A stretch of 64,000 nt of DNA from Chiloscyllium plagiosum (taxonomy: Eukaryota). The translations under genes and the position numbers were made by a program. The notes under the pieces were generated by a model that was not told the DNA's origin, made no database searches, and was given only the letters and a program-made list of their open reading frames with translations. This document shows positions 6,291-44,839 of this stretch, piece after piece (the first letter of the stretch is position 1; each line of letters starts with the position of its first letter). Location: contig NC_057760.1 in the NCBI RefSeq assembly GCF_004010195.1, positions 2,566,709-2,630,708 on the forward strand, in the 5' to 3' direction.

Positions 6291-6299
6291 AAACTACAT

Positions 6300-6470: not shown

Positions 6471-6723
6471 TTATGGTTGGGGGTGTTGAATATGCTAATG
6501 ACAGTAACAGTCATGAATTTGATGCAAATTCTATGGTTTTTGGATATGGTGATTAAACCTGTCTTCCAGAAACTTTCCAAGCTGTTTCTGCGGTGTGAGC
6601 TTCATTGATTCTCCGTTATGTCAATATTCCACAAACGGGTAGGAAAACCAATGGAGGGCCAGAGAAGCCTGAAAGAGTGTCTTTGTCATGGCCTACAGCT
6701 GAGAAGAGAGAGACCAAAGTGAC

Positions 6724-14995: not shown

Positions 14996-16184
14996 GTGGA
15001 TAGTGTGTTGGCTCCAGCAATAAGTTGCTGCATTCCAAATGAGAGATCCTATGTAACATCACTGACTTCTGTGGCACTTGGAATTAAATGGTTTGATGGT
15101 TATTGGCACATCAGATGTGCCATATGGTGTAATGCTGTTCCACCTGTGGGTGCCTGGGGATGGAGATTGGTAATCACTTAATATGCAGCTTCTTTTAGTG
15201 GCAGACCATTCTATCGTCATGAACAAAACAATGTGGTGAGGAAGGTAATGAATTGAGTACAGTGTATTCTGTGAAATGTATATTAAATTCCTTTGTATTA
15301 ACTCTTGGAACCTGTCCTTCATAGCGCTGCCAGGTTTTAGGGAGTTATTTTAATTTGGTCTGAGGATTTTAGATATTCAGAAAAGCCAGACTTCCAAAAA
15401 TTTATGCATAGGCACTTTCAATGATCAATGTTGCATTTTTGTGGCTCCAGCAATTTCTACAGGGGCCTCTTGGCCATCATTCGTTTTGTATGAGGTTTGT
15501 TTTTGAGCTGCATTACTCAGTTTTATGTTGGTGTGGCAAAGGGTGATAGGAAACTATAAATTGGGTGCTATTGATCGGGGCTGTCTTAACTAGGTTGGAT
15601 TTTCTCACTGGCTGAGGATTGCTTGATTTTCTTTCATTTATGTTTTAAGGTTTTTTTTAAAAATGTTGTTAATGTGTTTTTGATACTCTACATGTCAGTC
15701 TGATTAGATTCATTCAGGGGTTCTCAATGTAGCAGTGTTGATCTTGTGCTATTTTAAATTACTCTGGGGTGTCTGCTTTTAATTAAGAGAATAATGGAAA
15801 AGGCTTGGATTGTTGTGAAACATGTAATTGAGTTTCTCAACTGGAGTGCTCTATGTGCAGAATCAGTGGTTGAAAAGGAGATGAGATGTTCAACTGATGT
15901 GGAAGCTGTTGCAGATATGGTAGTGATCCTTAAGCTATTGGGCATAAGTGGCATCATAACTGACTGACCTCCTTAAACAGGGATCCATTACCCACTTGGA
16001 AATTTTTTCAATAAATGTTATATTTTGTCATAAAGTCTGTTGTGCTGTATGATAAAAGTCTGAATTAACTGCAGTGGATTCTGCTGTTTTAATAAATTTG
16101 ATATTTATTTGTAATGCTCACACAGTCATTTGGGTCACAAATGCAGTAGTCCATTATAAAAGCACTTGGAAGACTATGACAGGA

Positions 16185-17822
16185 TCAGACAGCATGATTT
16201 ACAAAATGGAAATTATGCTTGGGAAATTATGCTTGACAAATATATACGAGTTTTTTGAGGATGTAACTATTAGATTTGATATGGGGGAGCCAGTGAATAT
16301 GGATAACTTGTACTTTCAGAAAGCTTTTGATAAATTCCCACATTAGAAATTATCATGTAACACTAAAGGACAGTGTGTACTAACATGGTTAAGGAACTAG
16401 TTGGCAGACAGGTAACAGAAGGATTAAACAGATCTCTTTCTCAGTGGCAGACTGTGCCTAGTGAAGATCATTGCATAGACCCCAGCTATTCACTATATAC
16501 CTGTGCATATTAATGATTTAGGTGAGGAAGCAATATGTAACTGGTCCAAGTTTGCAGATGACATAAAGCTGGGTGGGAGACTGAGCTGGGAGGAGGATGT
16601 AGAGATGCTTCTGTGTGATTTGGAATAAGATAAGTAAATTGGCAAATGTGTAGCAGGTTAAAGTATGATGTCAGGAAATGTGAAGGTATCCACTTTCGGT
16701 ATCAAAAACAGGAGGATAGATTGGGAGGTGCAATGAAACTTGGGTATCCGCATACATTAATTGCTGAAAGTAAGTATACAGGTGTTGTAGGTGGTGAAGA
16801 AAACAAATGGTATTTTGACCTTTGTAGCAAGGGGTTTCAAGTACAGAAGCAAGAATGCCTTGGTGCAAATGTACGAAGTTAAAAATCAGACAACAGGTTA
16901 TCGTCCAATAGGAGTGCTGCTCCTTTAGGTAGCTAGTGGGGCAGGATCATAGGACACAGAATTTTTAGCAAAAGATCAAAGTGCCATGCAGCTGATGCGA
17001 CGTATTGAACAAACATAGATTAAATTGCCCGTAGTGTTAGCTGCAGGGGTAAACAGGGGAATGGGTCTGGGAGGGTGCGCTTCGGCGGGTCGGTGTGACT
17101 TATTGGGCCGAAGGGCATGTTTCCACACTGTAAGTAATCTAAATTGTAATCTAAAGACTTAACAGCGGTCTAGGTTTGTTCAATCCATTGCATCAGTTGT
17201 ATGACACTTTGATATTTTGCTAAAGATTCTGTGTCCTATGATCCTGCCCCACTTGCTATCTGTTGAAAGAACAGCAGTCCGAAAGCTTGTACTTCAAATA
17301 AACCTGTTTGACTTTAACCTGGTGTTTGATTTTTAACTTTGTCCTCCCCAGTCCAACACCAGCACCTCTATATCAGGGCAATTGTACAAGGCCTGGGTGA
17401 GATCATGTCTGGAGTATTGTGTGTAGTTTCGGTCTTGTGCTATTGTCACTGGAGTTAAAGAATGAGGGTTTTCATAGAAACCTCTAAAATTCCAACAGGA
17501 TTAGACACAGTAAAGCTAGGAAGAATGTTCCCAATGACCAGGAGTCTCAAACAATGGGTCACAGTCTAAGGAAATGGGGTAAGCCATTTAGGACTGAGAT
17601 GAGGAGAAATTTCTTCATGTAGAAAGTGGTGAGCATGTGGAATTCTCAGCTACAGAAAGTTGTTGAGGTCAAAACATTGAATGTTTTCAAGAAGGAGTTG
17701 GTATAGTCCTTGGGATTAAAGATATTTGAGGATTTGGGAGAAAGTCAGAACAAACTGTATGGTCATGTTGAATGGTGGAGTAGACTCAAAAGGACTGAAT
17801 GGCACACTCTTTTCTATGTTTC
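16185..17822 (+). mobile_element. Old CR1 RT-to-3' fragment interrupted by a fold-back element
   Basis: CLTNIYEFFEDVT..FQKAFDKFPH; SKFADDIKLGG; coding remnant resumes after 17387. Confidence 0.85.
16875..17377. mobile_element. Fold-back Penelope-related element with an HE1 3' fragment (17021-17154) in its loop
   Basis: 27/27 inverted match 16936-16962 vs 17226-17252; TSD GCAA(A/T)TGTAC at 16865-16874 and 17378-17387. Confidence 0.8.
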
Positions 17823-19100: not shown

Positions 19101-22100
19101 TACTGTTTCATACGCTGTTGCATTGTTTTGGAACTTTGGAAAAAAAAAGTCAAAACAACAGCAATTTTAAAAGGGAGAAGAACAGATTAAGGTAGCACAT
19201 GGTGAGGTCATTGCAACAGAGAGAGAGAACCTGCACAGTTACTGCCTTTGATATTTGAATTCTTGTATCGCTGGACATCTGAGTGCATCTGGGAAAATTA
19301 TCAAACAGTGAAATTCACAACTGATCTTGGAGGAACTGTTGGGCGAAGTTCACAGCACAGAATCAGATAAGTTAATTGTTGTCTTAAGTGTATCCAACAG
19401 AGAATCTGCAGTAGTGAGTAGAGTAGGTTCTTTCTTGATTGTGTTTTTGGAGATATGTTCCTTGATTAAACTTGAAATATAAGCCATAACTATTTATTTA
19501 ACCTGGGGCAGTGTTTGTAGGGGAATAAGACAGTGTTATTTTCTGAGTCTGTAGATTGTGAAGGAGCAAAAATGGCCTTTAATAGAGTGATGTGTACTTC
19601 TTGTCAGATGTGGGAGTTCAAAGAGAGTTTAAGGATTACTGCGAATTATATCTGCCATAAATGCTGCTGGCTGCGAATCTTATCAGATCGATTGGTTAGA
19701 GAGAATATTAGAAACAATGAGGAATTTGCAACAGCAACAGTATGTGATGAATGGCAGTTATAGGAACGGGGGCAAGTCTCAGAGTCACATAAATGGAGGA
19801 AAGGTAAGAGAGGTAGGCACCTAATGCAGAAATCTTTTGTGGATATACCCATTTCAAACAGGTATGCTTTTTTGGAAAATGTAGGGGGTGATGGATCCTC
19901 AGGGGAACGTAGCACGAACAGCCAAGTTTCTGGTATTGAGACTGGCTCTAATGCAACGAGGGGTACATCGGGTTCCAAGAGATCAATTGTGTTAGGGGAT
20001 TCTCTAGTCCGAGGTACAGACAGACGTTTCTGTGGCCAGCAGAGAAAAAGCAGAACGGTGTGTTGTTTCCCTGGTGCTAGGATCAAGGATGTCTCAGAGA
20101 ACGTGCAGAATGTTCTCACGGGGGAGAGGAGCCAGCAAGAGGTAATTGTCCACATTGGAACCAACGACATAGGAAGGGAAAAGGTTGAGATTCTGAAGGG
20201 AGATTAGAGAGTTATGGTATGTACTTCTTGTCAGATGTGGGAGTTCAAAGAGAGTTTAAGGGTTACTGCGAATTATATCTGCCATAAATGCTGCTGGCTG
20301 CGAATCTTATCAGATCGATTGGTTAGAGAGAATATTAGAAGCAATGAGGAATTTGCAACAGCAACAGTATGTGATGAATGGCAGTTATAGGAACGGGGGC
20401 AAGTCTCAGATAGAGTCACATAAATGGAGGAAAGGTAAGAGAGGTAGGCACCTAGTGCAGGAATCGTTTGTGGATATACCCATTTCAAACAGGTATGCTG
20501 TTTTGGAAAATGTAGGGGGTGATGGATCCTCAGAGGAACGTAGCACGAACAGCCAAGTTTCTGGTATTGAGACTGGCTCTAATGCAACGAGGGGTACATC
20601 GGGTTCCAAGAGATCAATTGTGTTAGGGGATTCTCTAGTCCGAGGTACAGACAGACGTTTCTGTGGCCAGCAGAGAAAAAGCAGAACGGTGTGTTGTTTC
20701 CCTGGTGCCAGGATCAAGGATGTCTCGGAGAAGGTGCAGAATGTTCTCACGGGGGAGAGGAGCCAGCAAGAGATAATTGTCCACATTGGAACCAACGACA
20801 TAGGAAGGGAAAAGGTTGAGATTCTGAAGGGAGATTAGAGAGTTAGGCCGGAATTTAAAATCGAAGTCCTCGAGAATAGTAATATCTGGATTACTCCCAG
20901 TGCTATGAGCTAGTGAGGGCAGGAATAGGAGAATAGAGCAGATGAATGCATGGCTGAGGAGCTGGTGTATGGGAGAAGGATTCACATTTTTGGATCATTG
21001 GAATCTTTTTTGGGGTCGAAGTGACTTGCACAAGAAGGACGATTGCACCTAAATTGGAAGGGAACTAATATACTGGCAGGGAAATTTGCTAGAGCTGCTT
21101 GGGGGGATTTAAACTGTAAGGTTTTGGTGGAGGGGAGAGATAGTGAGGAAAGAGATCAAACTGGGACTGGGATATCATAGCAATTACAGAAACATGGCTC
21201 AAGGATGGGCAGGACTGGCAGCTTAATGTTCCAGGATACAAATCCTACAGGAAGGATAGAAAGGGAGGCAAGGGGGGAGGTGTGGCATTTTTGATAAGGG
21301 ATAGCATTACAGCTGTGCTGAGGGAGGATATTCCCAGAAATACATCCAGGGAGGTTATTTGGGTGGAACTGAGAAATAAGAAATGGATGATAACCTTATT
21401 GGGATTGTACTGTAGACCCCCTAATAGTCATAGAGATGTACAGCATGGAAACCGACCCTTCGGTCCAACCCGTCCATGCTGACCAGATATCCCAACACCA
21501 ACTAGTCCCACCTGCCAGCAACCGGCCCATATCCCTTCCTATTCATATACCCATCCAAATGGCTCTTAAATGTTGCAATTGTTAAAGAAATTGAGGGTTT
21601 GGTTAAGAAAAAGAAGGAAGCATATGGAAGATATAGACAGGATAGATCGAGTGAATCCTTCGACTATAAAGGAAGTAGCAGTATACTTAAGAGGGAAAAC
21701 AGGAGGGCAAAAAGGGGACATGAGATAGCTTTGGCAAATAGAATTAAGGAGAATCTAAAGAGTTTTTACAATACATTATGGACAAAAGGGTAACTAGGGA
21801 GAGAATAGGGCCCCTCAAAGATCAGCAAGGCAGCCTTTGTGTGGAGCCACAGAAAATGGGGGATATACTAAATGAGTATTTTTCATCAGCATTTACTGTG
21901 GAAAAGGATATGGAAGATATAGACTGTAGGGAAATAGATGGTGGCATCTTGCAAAATGTCCAGATTACAGAGGAGGAAGTGCTGGATGTCTTGAAATGCA
22001 TAAAAGCGGATAAATCCCCAGGACTTGATCAGGTGTACCCGAGAACTCTGTGGGAAGCTCGAGAAGTGATTGCTGGGCCTCTTGCTGAGATATTTGTATC

Positions 22101-23345: not shown

Positions 23346-23717
23346 AACAGAATTAAAATGTTGTACTAGTATCTTCTGAATTAAAATACAGTAATTTCAA
23401 TGTCAAAAGCCCTATATTGGTAAGTGATATAACTGTTAGATTGTATTTTTATATGTTAAAATATAATCTTCAACTTTCAGTAGTGTCTATTAGGGGCCTG
23501 CCAGTTGCTGTGTCCGGTCACTGTTGGGGCAGTGGCAGCCTCTTGGGGAATGCTGTTGGATTGTGGCTAGGGTAAGTGGTGGCTCTTGAAAGCTTCCTGG
23601 GGCCTGTAGGTGGGATCGCCCTGGTGCAGACCTTGGGTAGTGTTGTGTGGAACAGGGAGAAGCTGCAAGTCTGAGAAAGGGAAAAGGTCACAGAAATGAA
23701 GTAATTCAGATCAGGTA

Positions 23718-23918
23718 AAAGTCAAGACGTCACACAACAGCAGGTTATAGTCTAGCAGGTTTATTTGAAATCACAAGCTTTTGCAGCATAGCTCCTTTGT
23801 TCGGTGAAGTCTTACAGCCCCTTCGTCAGGTGAAGGGGCTATGCTCCATAGACATGCGATTTCTATGTGTGTTGTGTGTGACTTCTGACTTTGCCCATCC
23901 CAGTCCAACACAGGCACC
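23718..23918. mobile_element. Degenerate fold-back element of the same family as 29087-29206
   Basis: AAAGTCAAGACGTCACACAAC / GTTGTGTGTGACTTCTGACTTT inverted arms; ends CCAGTCCAACACAGGCACC. Confidence 0.65.
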
Positions 23919-26276
23919 ATCGGGAGGTGTAGTGCAGTTAACAAAATTAAAACAAATATTGCAATGCTAAGTATGGTTTCTGATCTTAATAACATTAAAA
24001 CAATGCTAAATGAGCAGCATGCACTAAGTGGAGTGTGAGATGAAGTTTTGGCTCTGAGGCAGCAGTGGCCACTGTGGAGTTGTGCTTGAGTTACAACAGC
24101 TATGTTCCTGCTCTATCAGTACCCTCCTACCTTGTGATAAAAGCTTTAAGTTGTGAAAAAGTTTGGAAAGCCCATCAATGTTTGAGGAAATATTACTCCC
24201 TCTGTATCTTCAAATAGATTCGTAGATGGTCACTTATCACTACTGACATCCAACTCTGATCACTGAGACCACCTATACCAGGTTAACTTGAGGACTTCCT
24301 GACAGGCTCAGTTAACATTGTACTTAAGGAATGAGCATTACCTACCTCTTCATTTACATAGATTGTTCTGTACAGCCACTCGTACAAGCCAGTACCTGAT
24401 TCATGCAGATGTTCTGTACACAGTTGGTGAAGGAAAAAGGCCCAGGTCTGTGATATTTGTTGATTGGATATAACTGGATGTGTTTTTTTTAAAACAAGTC
24501 AGGTGATTGTTGTCAGCAGGCATGCAAGCTTTTCCTTGGAGTTTCTGTAGGAGACTCAAATCTCCTGTTTTGGAGGAAGAAAACATGGAAACTTTTTGCA
24601 CTTGTTTTGCTTCTGATCCAGCTAACAGTAAGCTATTTCTCTTTTATCTACTCAAAGATCTGAAGATAAAGCTGTTGATATGTCTAATTTTGAATAATGT
24701 ACTACATGATTCATGCAACTGCAGAATGTGACAGTGCAATTATTTGGTGGTGACCTTTTTAACTGAGCCACGTAATCGAATCCCAGTCCTTTTGGCCTCC
24801 CCAGATATTGTAATATTCCTTCTTTCAAATCTAAATGGTATTCATGGGCTCTGTTTGAGCAGTAACAAGGAATTCAAATCAACCACAGTTTATTCTGATT
24901 AAGCTTCAAGTTAATTTGTAATGATTTAAAACTACCGAATTAAAAACAATATTAATAGTTTTAATGAAATTTTCGTTCCAGAGAATAGTTGTCAGTGACA
25001 TAACCAGCACCTAGTAACATCCTGAATTTACCCTCCAGCACGCATGGTGACTCGACTTCTTGAATTGATGCAGCCTGCAGGGTGAAGGTGCTGCCACAGT
25101 TATCTTGGGAGTTTCAGACGCCCTGTTACAAACTTGAAGTTCTGAATTCAGTCACCTGACAACCTGGATAACAAGTAGTTTATATTTTTTAAAAATTACA
25201 AGCCTCCAAGTCTATCCCAGAAGACCACTCATTAGCACTGAATCACCCAGTGAATATGTCCTCACGTTTACCATTCCAGTCAACAAAAGAAAAATTTCTA
25301 ACTCATGTCAGTTAAAAGAACCCAAGGGTTGTCCAGACATCACACTGATATCTATAACATCTTATCACACCCTCAGTATCCCAAAGAATCTAGCAAATTG
25401 CAAAATGATATATTCAGCATGATGCTACCAGTTTTAAAGTTTCAGAATAACTTGTTAAAAATCGCTTAAGAGTCCCGGTGTGCTTCTGATGAATTCTTTG
25501 TTTTAGTTTTATGTAAGATAGAAATTCACACTGGGATAGTAACCTTTTGTTTTGAATGTAACTATTGAAATTCACCGCAAAATAGTGTGAATGTTTGCAA
25601 GGCAGATAGTGATTCTGTGTTGGGGTTTTCCATCTGTGGTTTCACCATGAATCAACTGAATAACTGAGAATTTGTTTTGCTTTTGCTGATGTGAATGTAG
25701 AACAATGAGTCTTCAAGTAAAAGCATGCTGATTACTTCTCAGATAACACAGATAAGTTCAGCATATTTCTTACAAATAAAATTGAATAACGTTTGAAAAT
25801 TTGACACCCACCCTCCTCCTGTATGTTCTCGACTACTTTCATGTATTCCCTCTCTCTCGTTTTGTCTTTTTCCTGTTTGCTCCAGACTATTTTGTGCACA
25901 TTTGCCCATCCTTTCTCATTTCAACAACTCACTGTGACAAATCTTGATGTTTTAACTTGCTGACTTATCCTTGAGCATCCTGGGCAAGGTTTGGTGACAA
26001 GGCAAACATGAGTTGCATGGAGATCTGAATTAAGCCTTTGCTGATCTCCGTCTCATGACTGCTAGTAAATAATTGTGCTTGAAGTTCAGCAGTCTATCAC
26101 ATTGGTTGGCGCCTTTCAAAGGAATGCTGCGATGAGGTGCTTTGTCTTTCGATGGACCAGTTATGTTGATGTGAGAGGAGATGGCTACTCATGAGTACTT
26201 GGATTGTCCTGTGTAGGTGTTGGCTGAGGACAGGATTGGACTTGTGATAGCTCCCACCACCACCACCTGAATTTGA

Positions 26277-27917: not shown

Positions 27918-29086
27918 AGTCCTTTTTGCCTGTCTGTAACAAGTAGTGTTTTCTTGAATAAATTTGTATGGACTTTCTGAATTTTTTTTTGTCTCACCAA
28001 ATTTTCTAATACAATGGATGCTCTTTATCAAGTTCTAATGTTGTCCTTCATAGAGAGTAGGGGATTACAGATATGTGCCCATTGTACTTCAAGGGGCATA
28101 TGCCTCTACTGTTGTAGTAATTGCTTGAGGCAAATCCTCCTCTTACTGTCACTCAATGACTTTACCATAATTGCATTGCATACGAGCCTTTAGTGTCGGT
28201 CTTGGGTTAGATTTTGAATCTGTGCCTATCTTCTATAAATTGTTTTATTATGGTTACATAATTGCAAACCTGCAGTTTTGCTATTTGAATGCAAAGAGCT
28301 GGATTTGGTAATGTTGACTTTGACTGCCAACTTGAGAACACCATGACTCCCAGAATCTGTTGTTTGGTCTAAGCTACCCTTGTGCCAATGTGGTTTATTA
28401 GTGCATGGCAGTCTTGATTGAATTAACTCCAGTTTCTCCCACTGTCATAATTTCATGCTAGTGTGTTATAGTTTGGAATATTTTGGCAAGCGCAACTTCA
28501 GTAGTTAAATAACATTTCCGTATTCTTTATTTCCATTCGATCTTTAATGTAAATTTTCTAAGTCAACATTAGACTTCACTGAAATAGCTTCCCAAAACCT
28601 TGTTGCAGAAGAGCAGAATTGTATGGTTAATTGATTTATTGGTTCTGAAATATTTAGCTTATCAGTGTTGGCCTTGTTAAAGCTATGGTTAGAGGGTGAA
28701 CTTTCTTTGTACTTCAGATAATCTGAGGAAACACCCAACAGGACAGATTGGGTGCTTTAAACTGTAAAGCACAGAGTACATGGGACATTTTGAGTTTATG
28801 GCATGAAGGATGAGCGATCAGTTTTTGTCTTTGAGTGCTGAGAGTAACTTGAAATGAAGAATTGTGATTAAGAACCTGATTAGCAAGAATTTTTCATGAA
28901 ATGACAACACTAAAACTGTCATAGTCATAATAGCACAGAAACGCACCCTTTTACCCCAACTCGTCCACGCCAACCAAACTTCCCAAACAAAACTAGCCCC
29001 ACTTTGTAATTTAATATAACCACTTTTACTGTCAATTAGTTTAACATCTGTAAACTTACTATCTATGCTTCCTAAATTCTTGATTC

Positions 29087-29206
29087 GGAGATGCCGGTGT
29101 TGGATTGGGGTGTACAAAGTTAAAAATCTCACAACACCAGGTTATAGTCCAACAGGTTTAATTGGAAGCACACTAGCTTTCGGAGCGACGCTCCTTCATC
29201 AGGTGA
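29087..29206 (-). mobile_element. ~120-bp TSD-flanked insertion containing an intact minimal hammerhead core
   Basis: TSD TTCCTAAATTCTT(G)ATTC at 29069-29086 and 29207-29223. Confidence 0.85.
29171..29205 (-). ncRNA. Minimal type I hammerhead ribozyme motif
   Basis: Minus strand CAC-CUGAUGA-A-GGAGC-GUC-GCUCC-GAAA-GCUA-GUG: full core, 5-bp stem II, palindromic AGCU helix III, 3-bp stem I. Confidence 0.75.
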
Positions 29207-30592
29207 TTCCTAAATTCTTATTCAAATTGTTTATATAAATGACAGACAACAGTGGACGCAGCACTGATCCCACAGAATGTTGCTTGTTGGAAGTCTTGCA
29301 GAATTGCCCCATGTCTTAATTATACTGCTCTTATTGTCTAAGTATCTTGTGATACCATTCAGGATATTTGGAGGGTGGAGAAATTTGACTGGGAATGTGA
29401 TTTGTGTTGTAGATTCCAGGATTTCAGTAAGGGATTCTTGAGCTGTGTGCAGCTAATGAAGTAAGTGAAATGTAATAAATACGTTAGCAACTTGGAGTTT
29501 TAAAAAAGTACTTAACCTACCCAACTACTTTCTTTTGCTTTGGAGATTGAGTCCTATAACACATGTAATTTGTAATGATGAATGAAGGCAAAGACTTCTA
29601 GTTTGTTGTCTGCACTAGCAAAGTCCATTTGGAATCTACTTTATTTGAATGAACTAATTCTATAACATGAAGGGGATGGAGTACTCGACAGCCTTGATTC
29701 CTGGAGTTGCTTTATTATTGGGAAGGTGAAGAAAGTCTGCAGACCTTTTTTTTTTAATAAAAAGGTTGTCAGTTCTCCAGAGTAACTGAAATACAATAGT
29801 ACCAGCTGTAAATAGCAAATTAGTGAGGACATTTGATGTCCAGACTGCTGATTGGAGGTTCAGGACTGCAGCATTTTAACCTCTGGTCAGGCTCTCTGTT
29901 GAATGTTCCAATTTTAGATTGCTTTGTTAAAGGCTTTAACAAAGTCTGAATAAGTGGCTCGTCCATTACCCCGCCTCAATTTTGCGTCCGCACTTCCCTA
30001 CATGTTCAACTTGTATAACTGCATTACTGACCGCCAAGAAGTATTCTGTACACTAAATCGAAGGTTGAAGATAAATACACCTTCTGCTTGCTTGCCACAT
30101 TTATTATTAGTCAGCTGAAAGTTGGTCGTGTTTTGACAACCAGTTATGTTTCCAGAACGTAGTATATCCATAATTTTATTTATTTATTCCACTTATTTAT
30201 ACAGGGTGAAAGCAGGTTGCATCATAACATTGCACAATTCTTCAAATCCTGACAGTGTGACTTTTCTCATGTATAAGGTAGACCTGCAGCAAGGTCTTGC
30301 ATTTTGTCTTCCATTCAAGAATATTGCTGACCAACAAAAGTTTTCAAGCTGATTCTTTCTTTTGCTGGCTTCTCATCAGGTCTTGCTCAAGCATCATTTT
30401 GTTTCAAACAATGCACCCCCCCCCCCCCCCCCCCCGCCCAGCTTCCCACGATGCAGAGGAAATCTTTCCCCTCATCCTGTTTCAAATTTTAGTTCTTTTT
30501 CTGAAGACCCTAATTTGCGATATAGTCTCTATCGATTGGCGGTTCGTCATTTATACGTGGATAATTTAGGTGAATATTGGCAGGATATTTAA

Positions 30593-32200
30593 ATAGGGTA
30601 GGGAACTTCAAAGCTAGAGGGCATAAGTTTAAGGTGAGAGAAAGATTTCAAATGGACCTGAGGGGCAACCTTCTCACACACAGGGTGATTAATATGTGAA
30701 ATGAACTGCCAGAGGAAATGGTAGAATCATAGTTGTACAGCATCGGAGCAAACTCCTCGGTCCATACAACTATGTTCCCAAACTAAACTAGTCCCATCTG
30801 CTGCATTTGGTCCATATCCCTCTAAACTTTACTATTCGTCAGCTCATCCAAATGTCTTTTAAATGTTCTGTGTGTACCTGCATCCACCACTTTCTCTGGC
30901 AGTTCATTCCACACATGAAACTCTCTGCTCCTCATTTTCCTTGTTAAATCTTTTTCCACTCACCTTAAATATGTGCCCCCTTGTTTTAAAACTACCAACC
31001 CTAGGGGAAAGATGCTCATCTATGCCCCTCATGATTTTATAAATCACTATAAGGTCCACCCCTCCACCACCTTTGCTCCAGTGAAAGAAAAATAACAATC
31101 TTGCGAGTCTGTTTTTATATCTCAAACCCTCCAGTCCTGGCAACATCCTGGTTAGTTGTTTCTGAGCCCTCTCCAGTTTAATAATATATTTGCTATAACA
31201 GGGCGACCAGAACTGCACACAATACCTCAGAAGAGACCTCACAATATCCCTCAACACGACATGCCAATTCTTATACTCAGTGGTCTAAGCTATGAAGGCA
31301 ACTGTGCCAAATGCCTTCTAAACCACCCTATCTACCTGTGAGGCAAATTTCAAACCTCTAGGTCTCTGTTGGACTGTACTACTCGGGGCCTTCCCCCAAA
31401 TTGTAGAATTAATCTGAGAGCCCATTGTTTGCATTACCAAAATGCAATATCTTGCATTTATCCAAATTGAACTCCGTGTGCTGCTACTCAGCCCATTTAC
31501 CCAATTCATCATGATCTCTTTGTAATCTTAGATAACCTTCTTCACTGTCTATTAAACCATCAATTTTGATATCAACTGCAAACTTATTGACCATGCCTCT
31601 TATATTCTCATCCAAATCATTTATATAAATGACAAACAAAGGCAGGCCCAATACTGATCCCCAAGGAGCACCACTAGTAACAGGCCTCCAGTCCGATAAA
31701 ACACTCTCCACCCTCGTCCTTTCTTTCCTACCATAAAGCCATTTTGTAACCAGTTGGTAAGCTTGACCTGAATCCCATGCAATTGAACTTTACTAATTAG
31801 TCTACCATGAGGAACCTTGCCAAAGGCTTTTACTAATATACAAATAAGCAATGTCTACCACTCTGCCCTCGTGAGTCGTTTGGTTACTTCATCAGAAAAA
31901 CTCAATCAAGTTTGTGAGACACTATTTTCCTTCCACAGAGCTAAGCTGATATTCCGAATTGATCCTTGCCTCTCCAAATGCATGTAAATCCTATCTTTGA
32001 GTCACCTCCAACAACTTATCCACCATCGATGTAGATGCAGGTACAGTTAAACATTTAAAAAGCATTAAGAAAGTTCTATGAATAGGCAAGTTTTAGCGGG
32101 ATATGGGCCAAATGCAGACAACCGGGGCTAGTTTAGTTTGGTAAATCTGGTTGGCTTAGATGAGTTGGGCTGAAGGGCTTGTTTCCATGCTATATGATGC
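30593..32200. mobile_element. Plus-strand CR1 3' end (30593-30725, 32031-32200) interrupted by a minus-strand CR1 (30726-32030)
   Basis: Minus ORFs KAFGKVPHGRL.., GSVLGLPLFVIYINDL..KFAVDIKI; GTAGA at both junctions. Confidence 0.85.
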
Positions 32201-32673
32201 CAATCCTTTCACCAGTGCCCACATATGCACCATCAAGCACAAATTCTCCAGCTATTGAAAAGCTATTGTAATTCCCAATGCCATGTTAGTTAAGATCAGA
32301 CAAGTTGTTCTAACGATTGACGACTATCGTGGTCTGTAGGGCCCAGTACCATACTGGGCAGACAGTGAGGCAGGAAATGTTTTTATAAAGCCAATTTGCA
32401 GATTTCTTTTTTAAACTTACAGCTAGACATCACTTTTTTTTTAAAAGAAAAAGTAATGAGAAAACAAACAGAAGAGCTTTCACTTATGCTGTGTCCCGAG
32501 TGCTTCGTAATGAGCTGATTACCTTTGAAAATCCTAGCCAGTAGCGTTTAGGTCATTGTGACAGTCAGTTGGACACTTCATCGCCATTTGGGTCATTTTA
32601 TTGTGATTTATAAGAGTCCTTCAGTTGATGTTTAACCCCTATTAGTATATATTGGTCATATCTAGCTTCTTAA

Positions 32674-32968
32674 GATTAGGTTCCCTACAGTGTGGAAACA
32701 GGCCCTTCAGCCCAACAAGTCCACACCAACCCTCCGAAGAGTCACCCATCCAGACCCATTTCCCTCAGACTAAAGCACCTAACACTATGGGCAATTTAGC
32801 ATGGCCAATTCGCCTGACCTGCACATCTTTGGACTGTGGGAGGAAACCGGAGCACCCGGAGGACACCCACGCAGACACTGCAAACTCCACACAGAGAGTC
32901 ACCCGAGGCCAGAATCGAACCTGGGACCCTGGTGCTGTGAGGCAACAGTGCTAGCCACCGTGTCGCCC
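32674..32968 (-). mobile_element. HE1-type SINE
   Basis: Reverse complement of head GGCGACACGGTGGCTAGCACTG and of the V-domain. Confidence 0.85.
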
Positions 32969-33539
32969 AAGATCTTGAGTAGGTGACTACACTGCTATAC
33001 TCAGTTGTGGTAGGCTTTTAAGGAAAGAAAGCAACTTGCAATCTTTGTTTTTATTACATTTATTTTGTATCTGCTGGAAATCTGAAACAAAAAACAAAGT
33101 GCTGGAGAAACTCTGGTCATTGGACTTAATGTTACCTCCGTTCTTGACACTACAGGTGCTACCAGATCTGCTGAGTTTCTCCCACCTTTGTGTTTGCATT
33201 TATAATGTACCTTCTGCAACTTCGAGAGAATCCAAAGCCACTGAATAAAATGTTGCAATCTAGGGGAACTTAATAGATTTCTCCCAAACATATGAGAGAA
33301 TGACAAAGATAATCAAATTTAGCGAGCTTCAGGAATATTAGTTTTGACACCAGAAGAACTCCTTGCTACCAGTAGAACTCCCATGACATTATTTAAAAGC
33401 TGAATTAAGAGGGTAGGTAAGGATGGTGAATGATCTGATGTAGAATACATTGTGGTTTCTGCCCAATGTATTGAAAAAGAGGATTTTCATTTTTGATGGG
33501 TAATGGATGACGTGTGTTGCTGGTCTGCTATTGTGAAGT

Positions 33540-33960
33540 TTTTCACTTTGGTAGGGAAAAAGCCAATGACAGACTATTATTTAAATGGTTATAGATGGGC
33601 AAATGCTAAATGTGCAAAGGGGCCTGGGTGTTCTTGTACGTCAGATGCTGCATGCAACTTTCCAGGTGCAGCAAGCAGTTAGCTTGTTGGCCTTCAATGC
33701 AACTATGTTTGAGTACAACTCAAATGATGTCTTGCTGCAGCTGTGGAGGGCTTTGGTGAAACCATTGTTGGAGTACTGTGCAGGCTTATTCTGCTTACCT
33801 AATAAAAGACACAATTATCATGGAGTGCAGTGATGGTTCAGCAGACTGATTCCTGGGATGGCAAGTTTGTCTGAAGAGAGGTTAGGTTAACTGGGCCTCT
33901 ATTCACTGTTAAACGATGGGGAGAGAGGATAGTGTTCAAAATTACAAAATTCTGACAGGA
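33540..33960 (+). mobile_element. Old CR1 fragment
   Basis: VQRGLGVLV..DVLLQLWRALVKPLLEYC. Confidence 0.75.
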
Positions 33961-35129
33961 AAATTATTCAAGAGGCTGAAGTGTAATTCCTTTTCACTTT
34001 GCATCCCTCCAAGGCATTGATATATTTAATTCAGAGCTGCTTAAACATTTTCCCACTGGGACACCATGTAGAGCCTTGAAAATTGTTCTTTCTGTCAGAA
34101 TTTGGTGGGGCTGGGTGATCTTTGAGTCAGAAGAGTGGTAGAGCTATGTGGTGACCATTGTGACCTGTGAACTCTCAACCCCTCAAACCTTGCATTTATT
34201 GATATTTGCGACAGCTTTTTAGGCATTTCTTTATAACCTTTTATATGATCCTAAATACTATTGTCAGCCATGGCTGACTGACTTTTTCTTTGAGTTTTGC
34301 ATGTTGAACGAATAGGACATTGTCTGTGGACAGTTGTGCCTTTTAATGTATTTCCCCAATCTATGTCAACCAATTTGAGCCTCATGCCTTCATAATTTCC
34401 TTATTCAAATTTCACACCCATGCTCTAGATTGAACTGTCTCACTTTCAGACGTTAATGTAAACTTCTATCATATTGTGGTCACTCATTCCTAAAGGTTCT
34501 TTTAAAAACAAGATTACTGTCAAGTTGTTTTTCATTAGGTATGTAAAAAAGACAACTATTTGGCTAAAATGTGTCTGAGTCTGTTATAGACAGAGTCAGC
34601 AAAATTATAAAGGAAATGGGGAAATGGCAGAGACGTTAAATGATTTAATTTTCTGTTTCCACTGAGGAAGATACAAGTAATCTCCCCAAACTAGAGGTGT
34701 AAGTGACTTGGGAAAATGAGGTGGTTGAGGGAAATTTGTTTGAGTGAGAAGATTGTACTAGAGAAATTAATGGAGTTGAAAGGTGATTAAATCCTCAAAC
34801 CTGATATTCTGCACCCCAAATGTTGAAAGAGTTGTATACTGAGATAGTTGATGCATTGATGATTATCTTCCAAAATTCTATTGATTCTGGAATGATTTTG
34901 AAAGGTAGCAGTGTTACCCTAAAAAAAAAGCTCAAAGGTGTTATATAATATAACTATGATCTGTTAGTCAGCAAATAGGGAATCATGTTTGAAGATGTTA
35001 GTTACATCTTCAAAAGCCTCCCAACAAAGTTGATAAAGGGGAGCCAACGGACGTTGTATATTTAGATTTTCAAAAGGCTTTCGATAAATCATTTCATGAG
35101 ATAAGTTAGAAAGATTAAAGCACCTAGGA

Positions 35130-35908
35130 GGCAGAGACCGCAATTTCCCTTCCCACGTGGTTAAAAATGCCCTCCAACGCATCTCGTCCACATCCCGCAC
35201 CTCCGCCCTGAGACCCCACCCCTCCAACCATAACAAGGACTGAAACCCCCTGGTGCTCACCTCCAAACAGACCCCACCACCAGGGATATATTTCCCTCCC
35301 CACCCCTTTCCGCCTTCCGCAAAGACTGTTCCCTCCATGACTACCTGGTCAGGTCCACGGCCCCCCAACAACCCACCCTCCCATCCTGGCACCTTCCTCT
35401 ATCACCGCAGGAATTGCAAAACCTGTGCCCACACCACCTCCCTCACCTTCATCCAAGGCCCTAAAGGAGCCTTCTACATCCACCAATATCATTTATTGTA
35501 TCCGTCGCTCCCGATGCGGTCTCCTCTACATTGGGGAGACCGGACGCCTCCTTGCAGATGGCTTTAGGGAACATCTCTGGGACACCCACGCCAATCAATC
35601 ACACCGCCCTGTGGCCCAACATTTCAACTTCCCCTCCCACTCTGCCGAGGCCATGGAGGTCCTGGGCCTCCTTCTTCATCCTCAACCCCACTCACCTACT
35701 GTAATCTATGCTACTTTCTCCCCAGCCCCAACCTCCTCTCATTTATCTCTCCACCCTTCAGGCATTCTGCCTGTATTCCTGATGAAGGGCTTTTGCCCGA
35801 AACGTCGATTTTCCTGCTCCTCGGATGCTGCCTGAACTGCTATGCTTTTGCAGCACCACTCTAATCCAGAATCTGGTTTCCAGCATCTGCAGTCATTGTT
35901 TTTACTTA
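35130..35908 (+). mobile_element. Penelope-like element 3' part: GIY-YIG endonuclease remnant plus terminal repeat with hammerhead
   Basis: NIIYCIRRSRCGLLYIGETGRLLADGFREHL..PVAQHFN (GIY-YIG); hammerhead core at 35779-35806. Confidence 0.88.
35775..35810 (+). ncRNA. Minimal hammerhead ribozyme motif (Penelope terminal repeat)
   Basis: CUGAUGA-A-GGGC-UUUU-GCCC-GAAA-CGUC; ACGU palindrome; weak stem I (AUUC/GAUU). Confidence 0.7.
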
Positions 35909-35909
35909 G

Positions 35910-37272
35910 TGTGGAAGATCAGCAGGATCTTGGGGTACATGTATAGAAAATCCTCAAGGTTGCCACACAAGTTGGTAGGGTTGTTAAGGTGGTGTATGGT
36001 GTTTTGGCTTTCATTAACAGAGGGATTGAGTTTAAGAGATGTGAAGTTTTGCTGCAACTCTATGAAACCCTAGTTAGACCACACTTGGAATATTATGTTC
36101 AGTTCTGGTCATCTAATATTAGGAAAGAGGCAGATGCTATAAAGAGGGTACAGAAGGGTACCAGGATGCTACCTGAATTGGAGGGTTGTCTTTTGAAGGG
36201 TTGAGTGAGCACGGGCTTTTCATACTGAAGAGAAGGAAGGAAGAGAGGTGATTTGCTAGAGTTGTACAAGGTAATGAGAGGCATAGCTAGAGTAGATAGC
36301 CAGAGACTTTGCCCCAAGGCAGAAGTGGCTGTCACAAGGGGGCATAATTGTAAGGTGATTGGAGGAAGGTTTGCTGGAGGTATCAGAGGTAGGTTCCTTA
36401 TGCAGAGTGTGGTGGGTGCGAGGAATGCACTGCCAGCGATGGTAGTAGAGTCAGAGACATGTAAGCAACTGCGCGACAAGCACATGGATGGGAGTAAATG
36501 GAGGTGTGTGTAGGTTGGGTTGATCTTGGATTAAGAGAAAAGTTCAGCACAACATCATGGGCCAAAGGGCCTGGCCTGTGCTGTACTGTTCTATGTTCGA
36601 AATGGTAAGAGGTTGGAAAGTGAAAGCATACAAAGGGACCAATGTATCCTCCTCAATAAGTCACTGAAGGCTAACATGCAGGTTCTGCAAACTATTCGGA
36701 AGCCTGATGGAATGTTAGCCTTTATTGCAAGAAGATTTGAGTGCAGGAGTAATCAAGTCTTGCTTCAGTTGTATAAGAGCTTGGTTTGACCACATCAGGA
36801 ATATTGTGTAGTTTTGGACCACTTCACTCAGGAATGATGTTATGGCATAGTTGGAGCATATCAAATGTTCACCAGACTTAACACTGAGATAGCAGGACAG
36901 TCCTGTGAAGGGAAGTTCGGTACATTGAGACTATATCTCTAAAGTTTTGAAGCATGAGAGGTGATCTTGTTGAAACACTTTTATACAAGGTAGATACAGG
37001 TAGGATGTTTACCATAATTGGAGAGTATAGAACACAATGTACAATGTAAACATTTAAGGGAAATAACTCAGACTCTAGATTAATTTTTGTTTTTACTCAG
37101 GGTTGTGAACCAAAGGGCTGTGGAAGCTCAGTCTTAAGGGAGCAAATGATAGATTTCTGGTTACCAGTGATCTAGGGTTATGGGGGTGGGCTGGTTAAAT
37201 GGCACTGAAATGTTTGATCAGCCATGATTTTATTGAGTCTAGATGGGCTGAATGGCTAATCCCATTCCTATG
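35910..37272 (+). mobile_element. Two consecutive CR1 3' fragments (35910-36598 younger, 36600-37272 older)
   Basis: LAFINRGIEFK..LLQLYETLVRPHLEYYVQFWS; CR1 tails. Confidence 0.85.
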
Positions 37273-37483
37273 TGAATTTGCATAGAAATCATCTTGAATC
37301 ATGAAATGAGATATTGTTTCCAGGAAAAAAATTCATTAGGTGAGAAATGGGAGCCTGAAGAAAAAGCTGGCATGTCCTGGTATTTGTCACCTGACCTAGA
37401 ATTGCTTGATATTAATGATGGGGGGAAACCCAGAGGGAAGCTGATTCCTAATTAGTGCTGACTTTGTTTCTCTTCTTTTACAG

Positions 37484-37630
37484 TGACTGTGATGCTGCAT
37501 TTCAACTGGGAGCAATAACCAAGCAGCTTGTGTAGCATCAGTGTTCTGCTACAGAAAGCAGCAATCTGAAGGCACGGGTGGCTCTTTGTAACAATCCTTG
37601 CCAAACTGGTAAGGAGTGGGAAGTTGCATA
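37484..37630 (+). other. ASH1L: 5' UTR part of ASH1L exon 2
   Basis: Acceptor: branch-like GCTGAC (37457-37462), pyrimidine tract TTTGTTTCTCTTCTTTTA, CAG ending 37483; in-frame TAA at 37610-37612 upstream of ATG 37631. Confidence 0.8.
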
Positions 37631-38074
37631 ATGGAGCAAAGAAATACCTTATTAGGATCTTTAAACCAGCCTTTGAGCATTGATGCAGAGGGCAACCCTG
37701 GAAAAAATACTCCAACTAATTGCAACAACAAAGTTGTTGGCAGGAGAGAGGGAGAGATAGATGGAGGTGCTTTGGAGGAAGAAGATGGTACGAATTGGAA
37801 GCAAGAGGGGGGAAAAGCTGCTGACTCGGGGCAAGAACTGGATCCACCAAACTCTGACCAGCAGCAATTCTCTGTCAAGGAGACAAATTTTGCAGAAGGC
37901 AGCCTGAAACTCAAAATTGGGTTGCAGCCCAAGAGAACTAAGAAACCCCCCAAAAACCTGGAGAATTACGTTTGTCGGCCTGCTATTAAAACAACCATCA
38001 AGCACTCACGGAACAAAATTTCCAGAAGTGGGAAAAGCACCGAGGAGAGAGAGGAAGAAAATGAGCTGAAACGG
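37631..38074 (+). CDS. ASH1L: Histone-lysine N-methyltransferase ASH1L, first coding exon (codons 1-148); the rest of the gene lies beyond the window
   Basis: MEQRNTLLG...[49 protein letters not shown] matches the ASH1L N-terminal block as I recall it (human [49 protein letters not shown]); Kozak ATAATGG; phase-0 donor CGG|GTAAGG at 38074/38075. Confidence 0.95.
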
Positions 38075-38722
38075 GTAAGGTCCCCACCATAACTAATAAG
38101 ACGCAATATCCGGTTGACTGTTTGTAATAAGTTTTTGATTTATTTCATCTTTTCTCTTGGAGCTTGCTTATCTGCCTGCAGGTTTGATTGGTTGAGTGAA
38201 ACCCTTCTTTCAACTCTTAATTTTGAGCAATCTGGTTAATGTAATATCTTGAACTCTGAACCAGGAAATAATAACCCTTGGGCTTGAAACAGAATGTCTT
38301 TACTCCAAAGTCAAATGACACCTTACGACTGTACTAGTGTTATCCAGTCTTCAGGTGTTCAGTGTCTTCATCCCTCAAAAACACAGCTACTGCCACAGAA
38401 ATTTTCCTCTAGCTATTTTGCCACCCAAACCCAGTGTCTTTGGTTGTTTGAGTGATATCTGAACATTGTACATACATCACAACCAACCTATTGCTTCCTT
38501 TTTTTTCAAAACTTTGGACTAAAATAAAATCGCTCCAGAGTATCAAAATGGCATTGCCCAAATCTTGACATTTCCCAGGATTTGAATAAGGTCTTTTAGA
38601 TAGCTAGAACTAATATACCCTCTATTACAAAATTGTGGCCATTTTTGTTTCTAACTTAAGATGTGCTTTTCTGATGGATTAATTTAAATTTGGAGGTTAC
38701 ATTAAAGTAGCAAAGGTATTTT

Positions 38723-38919
38723 AACAACAAATGCTGGAGATCACAGTGGGTCAGGCAGCATTCAGGAAGACAGAGCAAGCTAACATTTCAATTCCAGATC
38801 TCTGAAGAGTCATCTAGACTCAAACATGAGCTTGCGCTCTCTCCCTGAATGCTGTCTGACCTGCTGTGATCTCCAGCATTGTTGTTTTCAGTACAGATTT
38901 CAGCTTCTACAGCTACTAT
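38723..38919. mobile_element. Fold-back element of the 5866-5981 subfamily
   Basis: 17/17 inverted match 38730-38746 vs 38864-38880; GAAGAGTCATCTAGACTC stem; TSD CAAAGGTAT(T/C)TT at 38711-38722 and 38920-38931. Confidence 0.75.
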
Positions 38920-41900
38920 CAAAGGTATCTTCGCTCTTATGATAGAAAACACTCCTGGAAATGCCAAGTATCCTAAGCGCTTGAAGGAGAGGAGACTGAT
39001 TAACGATTTTTATGAAGAGTTCAAAACATAAACCTGAAAAGTCAGCAATGTATTTTCAGCTGAAAATAATTACTTCAGAATTGCAAGGTTACTTTGGCTG
39101 CTTGTCTCTATTTTGGTAATTTTGACAGCCAGTAATACTTTTAACCATCAATGCTCCAATTAGTTTGACATGTCGAGTCATGCTAGATGGAGTCAGCAGT
39201 TAAAACAGTATATTTCTTATATTTTGGAGAAATGGCTAATAATTCACTGGAATTCTGGGACTTGGGTCACAGACACTGGGACTTGGAGTTTGGGTCACAT
39301 GGATGCCCAGGCCTCATGGAAGCAGGTATCTTGCCTTGATGGGTCAAGTTTGTTACAATTGATAGATGCTGCACTTTGTGAATGGGATTGGAGCTGAGGT
39401 ACGGCAGAGTCAGGCACAGGTCCAGAGTGTGTGTTCTTGCTGACTAATGCTTATTCAGCAGTCTTGCATTGTCTGTGGATAATTTGTAGAATCAGACTTT
39501 TACTTGGTTGCAATTTGTATCTGTTAACTATTTATTTTACTAGGCGATGTACTGAAGTTTCTTTTTTCCAAAGTGTTTTGATTCTGTATTTGAGGGTGAA
39601 TATTTCGTAATGCATCACCTTGCCTTCCCAATGCAGGTATAACATTACCAGATGACAGAGTAACACTCTCTTCACCCATACCTCTTTTTAGCATATGCAT
39701 TAAAATTTTACAACAGCTCTGCTAGGCTTGTGTTCTTTCAGAATGTAATTGTTAATTTATTTACCAATTATTATGGGCTGCTTTGTATTGTCTTTGCTTT
39801 GAATCCGGAATTGACTCGAAATAGCTGCAGACTGACTTTGTATAGAATCATTAGCCTCTTCACTGCTGACTGACCTCTGACCTGTCTGGGCTGGATTGCA
39901 AGCTGATCCCAGATTTGAAGTAAAAGCGTTCAAAAATGAAACAACCGGTTTGTCTTGTCTTTTTTGTTTTTCTGGTAGTATATTAATCCAAAGCTGGACT
40001 TGATACTGCTTAATAGCCGCAAATCTGCAATGTGTGTTGGTTATCTGCTCTACCGTGTGTAGATTGTGGTGTGTAAGTCAACTCTGGTTATAAGCTGCAA
40101 CAACAAATCGTATCTGTTAACCCCCTCCGTTTCAACTTCACAATGAAGTGCTTGCTCAGTGTGTGGCCTCAAGTTTTCACAGAAGAAGTAAATGTTCTAC
40201 TTAGCTTGTACTGTAAATCAGCACATGGATCGAGCAGGCTGTAGGCTTTAAGTGACAAAAAGGATGCATGTGAGTTTGAGAGACTCTTGTGGAGCAGACC
40301 AAGCATGGCATGGCAAGTGATGAACAGAAGTAGGGCCCTCCAGTGAAATGAAAGGAGTGTTAAGCATATTCTGGGTGAAAATCATCATGTTTACTAATTT
40401 GTGTCTCGCTGCACCAAGGTAATTTGGCATTAGTGAAAATTGGTGTGAGATTGGCTGAAGGGCTCTGCCCTGAAGACCTGAAGAAGACACTCCACGTCAT
40501 GGAAAATATCAGAACGGAGACCAGCCACCATCCTGATCGTGAGACTTGTGTATTGCGGCAGATCCTCGAAAATCGTCATGCTGCATTTCTGGAACCAAGG
40601 TATACATACACAATCGGTCCAAGTCAGAACCCAAGTCCAGCAAAGCTTGTAGAACAAGCAGTTAGTTGTTTAGCCATTTTAATGGGATGAAACAATCAAA
40701 TGTTGTGGCAAAAGGCCAAAATTGTACAGATGCTTAAAAAAAGACCTTGACAAAATTACTAGTTTCTATGATTCTTCATCAGACCGTGGTGAAAATGAGA
40801 ATCCTAACTGAATTTGCCATCGGTGTGGCTATTAGAAGCAAGCCTGGAGATTTGCAAAAGAGAATTCTCTGATTTCAGTCAGCCCTTGGCTGGTTGTGGT
40901 CCGTTTGAACTCAGCAGTGATAGTTGCAATCGCAGTAAGCACTCCATCCAGATGCAGTAACATAATGACATTCAGCATGAATCAACACGGCTGTGCCATG
41001 TACTGCGCTGATGAGTGTTACTGCTGCCTGTTTCTTGTCCTGCCAGGAACTACGACTGAGCCTCATTGACCTTGAGTGAGACCGCGAGGTTAAAAGAACC
41101 AGGAGGGTAAAGGAGCATGAGCAATTTAAAAGTAACTGTCCAAACTTTAGTGCCCAAGTATGCTTGGAAAATTCATTCTATCACCAATATTGTGTGCCAG
41201 CTGCAAAAACTTTGTGTTGATTCCCAGCTGAGAGAATGACAAGAGTTGGAGTAAGTATTTCCCATGAGGACACTGCATTTTGGAGAAATGCAGCAGGAAT
41301 ATGGTAAAGGGTGTTGGAGTAGTGGCAGGGGAGCTAATGGAGTGGCTCTTTGAAAGAACCATCGCAGACAAAGTGGGCCAAAAGTGGGTGAAAGATGTAT
41401 GTACTTGTAACAGGGAAGGAAAATAGCCCATCTGAAGGCTTGGATTAATATCGGACTGTCCATACAGATTTAAAAATTAACTGGTGGGATTTAATTATAT
41501 TGAAGAGTGGAGAAAATCATTGTGTAGGGGGAAAGGAAATGTTTCATACATTAATATTTGAGACTGCACTTGATATTATACTGCAGAAGAGGGTGATAGT
41601 AGTATCTGGTATTAAAAAACAATGTAGCCACCTGGAGAAGGCTAGAGAACAAAAATGTTGTAGTCGCAAGGGATCTTTGCAGGAGGAGTTGTATGAAGTT
41701 TATAAAAGTGATTTGAATGTAGATATAAGCAAAATACTAGTGCAGTTTCCTGATGGAATAAATTAAGGAGCATGCTGATTTATAACACTGGAGGTTGTGG
41801 ATGAATGTAGATTGGTTTTGTATATGTAGAGAAAAAGTAGAGTATGCATTTTGGGAGGGAAAGAACAATGAGGCAGTATAATTTAAATGGTTAGGATTCT

Positions 41901-42049
41901 TAATGAGATATTGAAATCTCAGTAATACAGATGTGTTGTTTTGAAAGAAGGAAGACTGGTAGAAAAGGTCATGAAAAGGCAAATATTTTTCTAGCCACCT
42001 TAAGATGCTGTTTACGATCTGGAACTTCGTACGTTTTCGTTTGGAATAG

Positions 42050-42870
42050 TCCAAGCAGGTTGGAAGTTAGCAAATACAACACTGCTATGCCCGAAAGGAA
42101 GGAGGGAGAAAACTGGGAACTAGCAGTTAGATTGACATAATTGGTTAAGAAAATGCTGAAATCTATTATCAAGTCTCAACAATGTGCTTGCAGAGTCAGG
42201 CAAAGCTAACAACATGGTTTCATGAAAAGAAAGTTGTATTTAATTGCGTAATTAGGGTAGTTGAGGGATAGAAAATGCAGTGTACTTAGATTTCCAAAAG
42301 GTGTTCAGCAACACACAGTACTAAAGGTTACTATGCAAGTCAAGAACCTGAAAACTGGGATAATATGTGGAAGTACACAGGTTAATGAATAGGAAGAGTT
42401 AAGTAGCGATGAAAGGTCATTTTCAGTTGGTAGGTTGTAACTAATGGAGTGCCACAAGTAACAATGCTGTGGCTATGGCTATTTCCAGTCTATATCAATG
42501 ATTTAGTGAGGTCACAGAGAATGAGGTATCCAAGTTCACAGGCAACGCAAAGTTATGTGTAGACCAAGAGAAAGACAGACTGCAAAGTGGTATAGCCTGG
42601 TTAAATGGGTGACAAAGTGAGGTGGCAAATGGACTCTAATTCAGGAAATTGCAAAATTATTTACTTTTTTTGGCGGTAAGAAATCAAGAATGTTTTTTAA
42701 AAAGGTATGAAACTTTTAAAAGTTGTTCCGAGATCTATGGATATGCTTGTACAAGCAATACCTGCAAACACAAACAACAAGCAATGAGAAAGTCAAATGA
42801 TGTGGTGTTCTGTGCTGCAGGAGAGTAAAACTTCAGGAAGCAAGCTCTGTTAAAATTATATAGGGTTTTG
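42050..42870 (+). mobile_element. Heavily decayed CR1 RT fragment
   Basis: TACTTAGATTTCCAAAAGG (YLDFQK), GGAGTGCCACAAG (GVPQ) and YINDL remnants. Confidence 0.65.
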
Positions 42871-44550: not shown

Positions 44551-44839
44551 AAAGAAACTTTGGAGCCCTCAAAAGAAAATATTTTATACCTTGCTGAATA
44601 TGTTTGAGCTTGGGAACATAGAAGGCTCTGAGGGAGCTTTTCAGGCTCAACACAGGATGTTTCCTACATTTGGGAACACTTAAGACAGTCTCAGGATAAG
44701 TTGCCAAGATGAGGGGCAATTTCATCAGAGTTGTGGGTTGATTTGTAGACTTAAAGCTGAGGCAAAGAATTTTAATATCAAGGCCTATGGGAAACAGGAT
44801 GGGAAAGTAGACTTGAGGCAGAAGGGAAAGTAGACTTGA

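Follow-up and report, generated by a model that had tools for sequence, protein, structure and literature searches.

The question raised by this locus is whether a 125-bp insertion built around a hammerhead ribozyme is a mobile unit in its own right or the end of a larger retroelement. It lies in a 64,000-nt stretch of the Chiloscyllium plagiosum genome (GCF_004010195.1, NC_057760.1:2,566,709-2,630,708, forward strand), here called the window. A sequence-only reading had described the insertion as a distinct, non-coding, retrozyme-like unit of recent origin. We conclude that it very probably represents the terminal 125 bases of a Penelope-like retrotransposon with an endonuclease, likely of the Neptune type, mobilised by that element's own reverse transcriptase (RT)/GIY-YIG protein.

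Solo minimal hammerheads from truncated metazoan Penelope-like elements have been described previously (Cervera and De la Pena, 2014; PMC4209133). They occur mostly as single copies genome-wide, attributed to truncated elements, and the genomes of fish, coelacanth and Xenopus each contain thousands of them. Sharks are not named among the hosts in the accessible part of that paper. No paper on shark Penelope hammerheads was found in the literature searched; the supplements of a 2026 preprint, which include retrozyme families of one chondrichthyan genome, may list the family (Li et al., 2026; bioRxiv 10.64898/2026.07.22.740005).

A minimal hammerhead within a 125-bp insertion

All parts of the hammerhead core listed in the sequence-only reading are present on the minus strand (Table 1), and the minimal hammerhead motif is genuine. 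A strict descriptor of minimal hammerheads, built on features in the accessible text of Cervera and De la Pena (2014), matched twice in the window (29202 minus and 35779 plus) and in none of 200 dinucleotide shuffles of it. The motif has the CUGANGA...GAAA core, the extra base, the G10.1-C11.1 pair, a palindromic 15.2-16.2 and an H17 other than G. A short stem I, an extra base between positions 9 and 10.1, the G10.1-C11.1 pair and the palindrome are common to the hammerheads of 2014, and these features fit the proposed Penelope-type, dimer-acting class. The two kinds of hammerhead search that had been proposed diverged: the descriptor was positive, whereas Rfam returned no hammerhead model for 28000-30500 at E up to 10, only four chance matches. 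Silence on the hammerhead is expected of Rfam, because this form lacks helix III.

The 51-nt motif region folds no better than its shuffles (z -1.26), and none of the folding z-scores is significant. Predicted energies, which leave out tertiary contacts and protein, are -18.3 kcal/mol for the one-core dimer, -20.6 for two monomers and -32.7 for the best dimer. On these predictions the free RNA would not adopt the hammerhead fold alone, and the active one-core dimer would not be the minimum, being less stable than both two monomers and the best dimer. These predictions agree with the reported inactivity of the minimal monomer and weak activity of the dimer (Cervera and De la Pena, 2014), and with the finding that cleavage by a Penelope-like hammerhead is helped by protein (Frangieh et al., 2024; PMC11167929). 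Stem covariation amounted to one pair changed on both sides, in four sequences only, and 116 of 500 shuffles scored as high.

A chance match or assembly artefact would accord with the folding score of the 51-nt region and the blank Rfam result, but its probability is negligible. It is refuted by the shuffles, by a depth of tens of thousands of reads and by four sequencing runs that contain 89-96% of the stretch's words, and the same motif occurs in unrelated contigs. A sigma-70 match was discarded as irrelevant in a eukaryote.

The insert is flanked by an exact direct repeat, which bears out the claim of a retrotransposed insertion with a target duplication. The repeat had been given as 13-17 bp; its exact length is 13 bp. 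A duplication of 17 bp was rejected: alignments of family reads begin at 29081/29082, which assigns the extra four to five matching letters (29082-29086) to the 3' end of the element itself. The insert itself had been placed at about 120 nt from the 5' strand of stem I, which is near; it measures 125 bp, and its 5' edge lies 1 nt upstream of stem I, or possibly up to 3 nt. The letters 29207-29208 also match upstream sequence of the family (seen in the gene model P0001, below, and in a loose-end row at 29208), and we infer microhomology at this right junction. Stem II begins 113 nt before the insert's 3' end, and the predicted cut site falls inside the insert, not at either end. The copy contains no ORF, and no tandem array was found at its locus.

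The likely host gene is represented by an ORF at 37613-38092 (+), with 'SET-binding protein' as its first Atlas match (0.94, a weak recognition); we take it to resemble the first coding exon of an ASH1L-like gene. As this gene is on the plus strand, its transcript would carry the non-catalytic strand of 29082-29206. The window begins with GC-rich sequence, possibly the promoter region of the host gene. Elsewhere, 19584-20845 is a tandem duplication of a ~630-bp unit. Its two copies are 97% identical, and both contain an open frame that resembles the first ORF of a CR1-type LINE.

Table 1. The insertion, its hammerhead and related insertions, in window positions.
Feature	Position	Strand	Remarks
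Insertion of hammerhead, body and tail, probably the 125 nt at the 3' terminus of a Penelope-like pseudo-LTR	29082..29206	-	Motif, reads, relatives
Target-site duplication, left copy	29069..29081	.	13 bp, 77% A+T; exact direct repeat
Target-site duplication, right copy	29207..29219	.	13 bp; exact direct repeat
Optional 32-34-nt tail between the family's two preferred 3' ends	29082..29115	-	Loose ends, depth steps, one-armed window tails
Minimal type I hammerhead	29171..29205	-	Motif reading and strict descriptor; cleavage activity a prediction only
Stem I, 5' strand CAC	29205-29203	-	3-bp stem
CUGAUGA box	29202-29196	-	Conserved core
Extra A before stem II	29195	-	One base
Stem II GGAGC/GCUCC	29194-29182	-	5 bp, 3-nt loop; opens with a G-C pair
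GAA, merging into the palindrome	29181-29179	-	Core
Self-complementary AGCU replacing helix III (A15.1-G-C-U16.1)	29179-29175 region	-	
H17 = A	29174	-	Predicted cut 29174/29173, after CUA
Stem I, 3' strand GUG	29173-29171	-	
Older head-to-head pair, family of 29082-29206	16865..17372	.	~80% alike; tail on one arm
Older head-to-head pair, family of 29082-29206	23712..23925	.	~80% alike; tail on one arm
Head-to-head pair, 35779 family	3959-4186 (3943-4202 with duplications)		16-bp duplication (3943, 4187); tail on one arm
Head-to-head pair, third hammerhead-bearing family	38720-38919 (38711-38928 with flanks)		9-bp duplication
Short single arm, third family	5860-5990		Near-intact core at 5887
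Penelope-like fragment, other family	35341-35900	+	GIY-YIG relic, 3' region, intact minimal hammerhead 35779
Longer Penelope-like relic	13646-15083	-	RT fragment, assembly N gap, degenerate hammerhead-tail

Copies and ends of the family

Four public runs were aligned to 28850-29450 at 80% likeness. From run X20, raw reads under the same species label of which 1,934 Mb (~4% of the run) were used, 62,668 reads aligned, nearly all on the insert (888 at 99% identity or more, 12,754 at 95-99%, 26,234 at 90-95% and 22,792 lower). Depth was 47,900 over the body (29123-29143) and 19,500 over the ribozyme (29186-29206); the final tail bin had 16,500, and most bins of the unique flank had none. For an assumed genome of 3-5 Gb, this corresponds to 30,000-50,000 ribozyme-bearing copies, and to 74,000-124,000 that contain the body; the former figure exceeds the 4,000-9,000 minimal hammerheads per genome tabulated in the accessible part of the 2014 paper (Cervera and De la Pena, 2014). 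Lower-copy repeats adjoin the insertion at 29207-29270 and 28955-29000 (depth ~2,500 at 29228-29248 and ~250 at 28976-28996).

Among the best 24 of 1,222 loose-end rows, 3' loose ends fall at 29081 (6,758 reads, agreement 0.37) and 29087 (3,167 reads, 0.44) and run into A+T-rich letters. Agreement this low indicates a fixed 3' end amid many different flanks. A second 3' end lies 32-34 nt inside, at 29114/29116 in contigs of runs X19 (at least 464, the loose-end counts of this run being lower bounds) and X6 (465). The family thus has a fixed 3' end with an optional tail of 32-34 nt, and the 3' loose-end consensus contains a few further letters that read as ATG on the element strand.

The 5' loose ends, in the same best 24 of 1,222 rows, are at 29205 (6,017 reads, agreement 0.63) and 29208 (2,801 reads, 0.71). 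Reads that continue within the family at 29171/29172 agree at 0.68-0.73; the 5' values are near these, which indicates that stem I is not a fixed start of the family, and reads break at 29205/29208 because the window copy ends there. Raw-read loose ends retain the family consensus over all 30 letters displayed. Contig loose ends at 29205 agree at only 0.42-0.44, which points to many distinct 5' junctions within ~30 nt upstream, and none of these agreement values translates into a proportion of copies ending at 29205. The idea of a separate retrozyme-like unit with fixed ends is not supported: the family runs upstream of the hammerhead in reads, in a window copy and in P0001, no array was found at the locus, and the predicted cut site is internal to the insert. 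Random 5' ends, as of truncated Penelope termini, had been named as the observation that would count against such a unit, and the outcome is largely of that kind, with clustering of 5' ends a short way upstream of the ribozyme a possibility.

It is very improbable that the insert is a non-LTR retrozyme monomer, released by its hammerhead from tandem transcripts, circularised and reinserted. Non-LTR retrozymes form tandem arrays of 150-450-bp units, in most cases with hammerheads of the canonical form, and produce circular RNA (Cervera and De la Pena, 2020; PMC7229834); their units are released by cleavage and circularised, and the 2026 preprint also admits minimal hammerheads (Li et al., 2026). 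The insert resembles them in its type I hammerhead, its non-coding nature and a duplication of more than 4 bp, as well as in kinship to pseudo-LTRs, from which retrozymes derive; solo monomers of retrozymes also occur (Li et al., 2026). Unlike retrozymes, it is a solo piece. Its boundaries correspond to the two tail ends of Penelope and neither to the cut site nor to a permutation of the unit. Its hammerhead is minimal, with a 3-bp stem I and no helix III, rather than the canonical type I form defined in 2020 by loop 1-loop 2 contacts (Cervera and De la Pena, 2020), and the lack of an array and the predicted energies of the active dimer also argue against this origin. Among the best 15 of 455 read joints there is no unit-length tandem joint, and those that go back span 30-48 nt and exclude the ribozyme.

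Opposite-strand joints in the same best 15 of 455 peak at 29171 within 29168-29173 (e.g. 29171 to 29205, 285 reads), which is the predicted cut site once the copy's 2-nt insertion is allowed for. This peak was not taken to indicate cleavage, as the alignments break at the same 2-nt indel.

Further insertions in the window belong to three hammerhead-bearing families. Two of the three in the 29082-29206 family have inverted partners, which opposite-strand read joints display too, and in all four head-to-head pairs, across the three families, the longer 3' end is on one arm only. The arms of the pair at 16865-17372, which is interrupted by a different repeat at 17021-17142, extend upstream beyond the hammerhead core by 91 nt or more; both arms at 23712-23925 begin no more than ~20 nt from a degenerate core. 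The hammerhead at 35779 has the palindrome ACGU and H17 = C, and is read in the direction of the likely host gene. Five of the eight hammerhead-tail insertions (two of three in the 29082-29206 family) start near the front edge of the ribozyme, about -25 to +13 nt from core C3, and the other three run at least 91 nt further. The boundaries in this census were set by eye, and the tail fragments at 54052-54114 and 5598-5622, with unplaceable 5' ends, were omitted. This clustering exceeds the obvious expectation of plain random truncation, and may show where the template RNA begins.

The insertion is probably recent, as had been claimed. In species B (two runs), a contig matches the left flank except at 4 of 219 letters. 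The match breaks off at 29068, immediately ahead of the duplication, with 34 letters remaining; in species C, a contig matches to 29081 with 33 letters remaining. A filled site would match on into the tail, and therefore the site appears to be empty in both related species, though the corresponding joint lies outside the best 15 of 455. The insertion thus probably postdates divergence from a species whose flank is ~98% identical.

The probable parent element and its clade

The insert's 40-residue antisense frame matches one protein among six candidates, the Chiloscyllium punctatum gene model P0001 (92% over 93% of the query). P0001 retains the insert's frame-keeping 2-nt insertion and goes on into upstream sequence of the family and then into RT. 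This RT matches an 881-residue RT/GIY-YIG protein, with GIY-YIG at the C-terminus, at 65% over 232 residues, and scores 29.1 bits with Pfam RVT_1 (cut-off 29.6). The layout of P0001 would be that of an inverted partner; it is an automatic gene model, in which predicted splicing could have joined the parts. A further antisense-protein search gave one genuine match of four (P0127), which stops at the front edge of the ribozyme and may belong to another subfamily. Another such search, for additional 5' ends, found none.

P0001 also bears on whether the insert belongs to a non-autonomous, SINE-like subfamily, with a transcribed master of ~125 nt mobilised in trans by a Penelope-like protein. We consider this unlikely. 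The very high copy number and the young subgroup (the 888 reads at 99% or more) would suit it, non-autonomous Penelope-like derivatives such as MRC1 are known (Craig et al., 2021; PMC8557442) and pseudo-LTRs suffice in trans (Arkhipova et al., 2013; PMC3846280). However, P0001, the one other readable copy of the exact subfamily, continues upstream and abuts RT, and the reads that fit to 29208 likewise continue. Rfam matched no tRNA, 5S or 7SL head in 28000-30500 at E up to 10.

Hammerhead pattern scans found none in viral contigs, bacterial/archaeal genomes or a first metagenome set, and two contigs in a second metagenome set. These marine metagenome contigs, L001 (960-1050) and L002 (1325-1470), have the same core and both stems with a different loop, and only weak similarity beyond the ribozyme. 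In both, which are presumably of animal origin, the shared core and stems stand beside RT/GIY-YIG fragments, with the RT piece inverted relative to the hammerhead. The RT piece of L001 matches P0001 at 63% over 86 residues, and the linker and GIY-YIG of L002 are 45-47% identical to the top homologues. Pfam recognised none of three proteins from the Penelope fragments of the window, nor the L002 nuclease; BLAST against homologues did recognise them.

A CX2-5CxxC linker marks the Neptune/Nematis elements (Craig et al., 2021). The GIY-YIG motif was found in 84 of the 120 long homologues listed and this linker in 77 of those 84; L002 also has it before GIY-YIG. The parent element is probably of the Neptune type, an assignment made through the linker motif of relatives and not through the 125-bp copy. 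No intact parent element was present as one DNA stretch among the sequences examined, and the tie to RT/GIY-YIG runs through P0001, L001 and L002.

Described EN+ Penelope-like insertions carry an inverted, 5'-truncated partner, and just one of their ends has the tail of 30-40 bp (Craig et al., 2021; Arkhipova et al., 2013), and target duplications in rotifers are 8-10 bp (Arkhipova et al., 2013). The insert and its family are like these units in 5' truncation, the one-ended tail, head-to-head pairs, the shortness of the target duplication and junction microhomology. Unlike the units in the accessible descriptions, the insert is a single arm with no inverted partner and no ORF, and has a 13-bp duplication.

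A proposed route of insertion

A mechanistic parallel comes from PAc, an element of the Poseidon clade in Anolis carolinensis, whose protein nicks A+T-rich DNA and uses an uncut RNA template (Frangieh et al., 2024). Two internal reverse-transcription starts bracket the PAc tail, 111-118 nt after stem II begins. The 113 nt of the insert falls in this range, and its family likewise has two bracketing ends and an A+T-rich target; since PAc belongs to Poseidon, the match in geometry is one of analogy. The ORF start differs, lying at stem II in PAc and apparently just after the tail in the insert family, judged from a few consensus letters only.

By this analogy with in vitro data, the RT/GIY-YIG protein would nick A+T-rich DNA and begin reverse transcription inside uncut RNA at the tail end. 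Copying would then pass through the ribozyme and halt 1-3 nt beyond it, at an early stop or at the 5' end of the RNA, and repair would generate the 13-bp duplication. Because the core is intact upstream of the cut site, the template must have been uncut, and the hammerhead would be carried along as a passenger. By itself this copy would be a dead end, as it has no ORF and no second hammerhead partner, and is antisense to the likely host gene.

A variant of this route, which we hold only tentatively, has the copy primed at the tail, in the junction of the upstream pseudo-LTR with the ORF, with run-off at the RNA 5' end before the uncut hammerhead, much like a strong-stop product. The five of eight window insertions that start near core C3 and the low agreement of contig loose ends at 29205 suit this variant, as does the apparent ATG beyond the 3' loose ends; PAc, too, primes internally near its ORF start on uncut RNA (Frangieh et al., 2024). 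It would also fit Drosophila virilis Penelope, where transcription starts within the pseudo-LTR and a 75-nt intron follows 46 nt later. The end of this intron falls in helix I (Cervera and De la Pena, 2014), which places the start site shortly before the ribozyme. Against it, raw-read loose ends hold the family consensus over their displayed letters, and three of the eight insertions run further upstream. Ordinary truncation also yields short copies, and the count is small (n = 8) and post hoc. It is possible, albeit doubtful, that a large class of shark insertions of 110-150 nt consists of strong-stop by-products in tens of thousands, which would map the transcript start.

In kind, the insert was already described in 2014 and its mechanism outlined in vitro in 2024; it is likely a commonplace example of a truncated retroelement terminus. 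Its family is sufficiently young and abundant for the positions of its 5' ends to test whether cut or uncut RNA is copied in vivo. If the strong-stop reading is true, the ribozyme stays silent during transposition in vivo.
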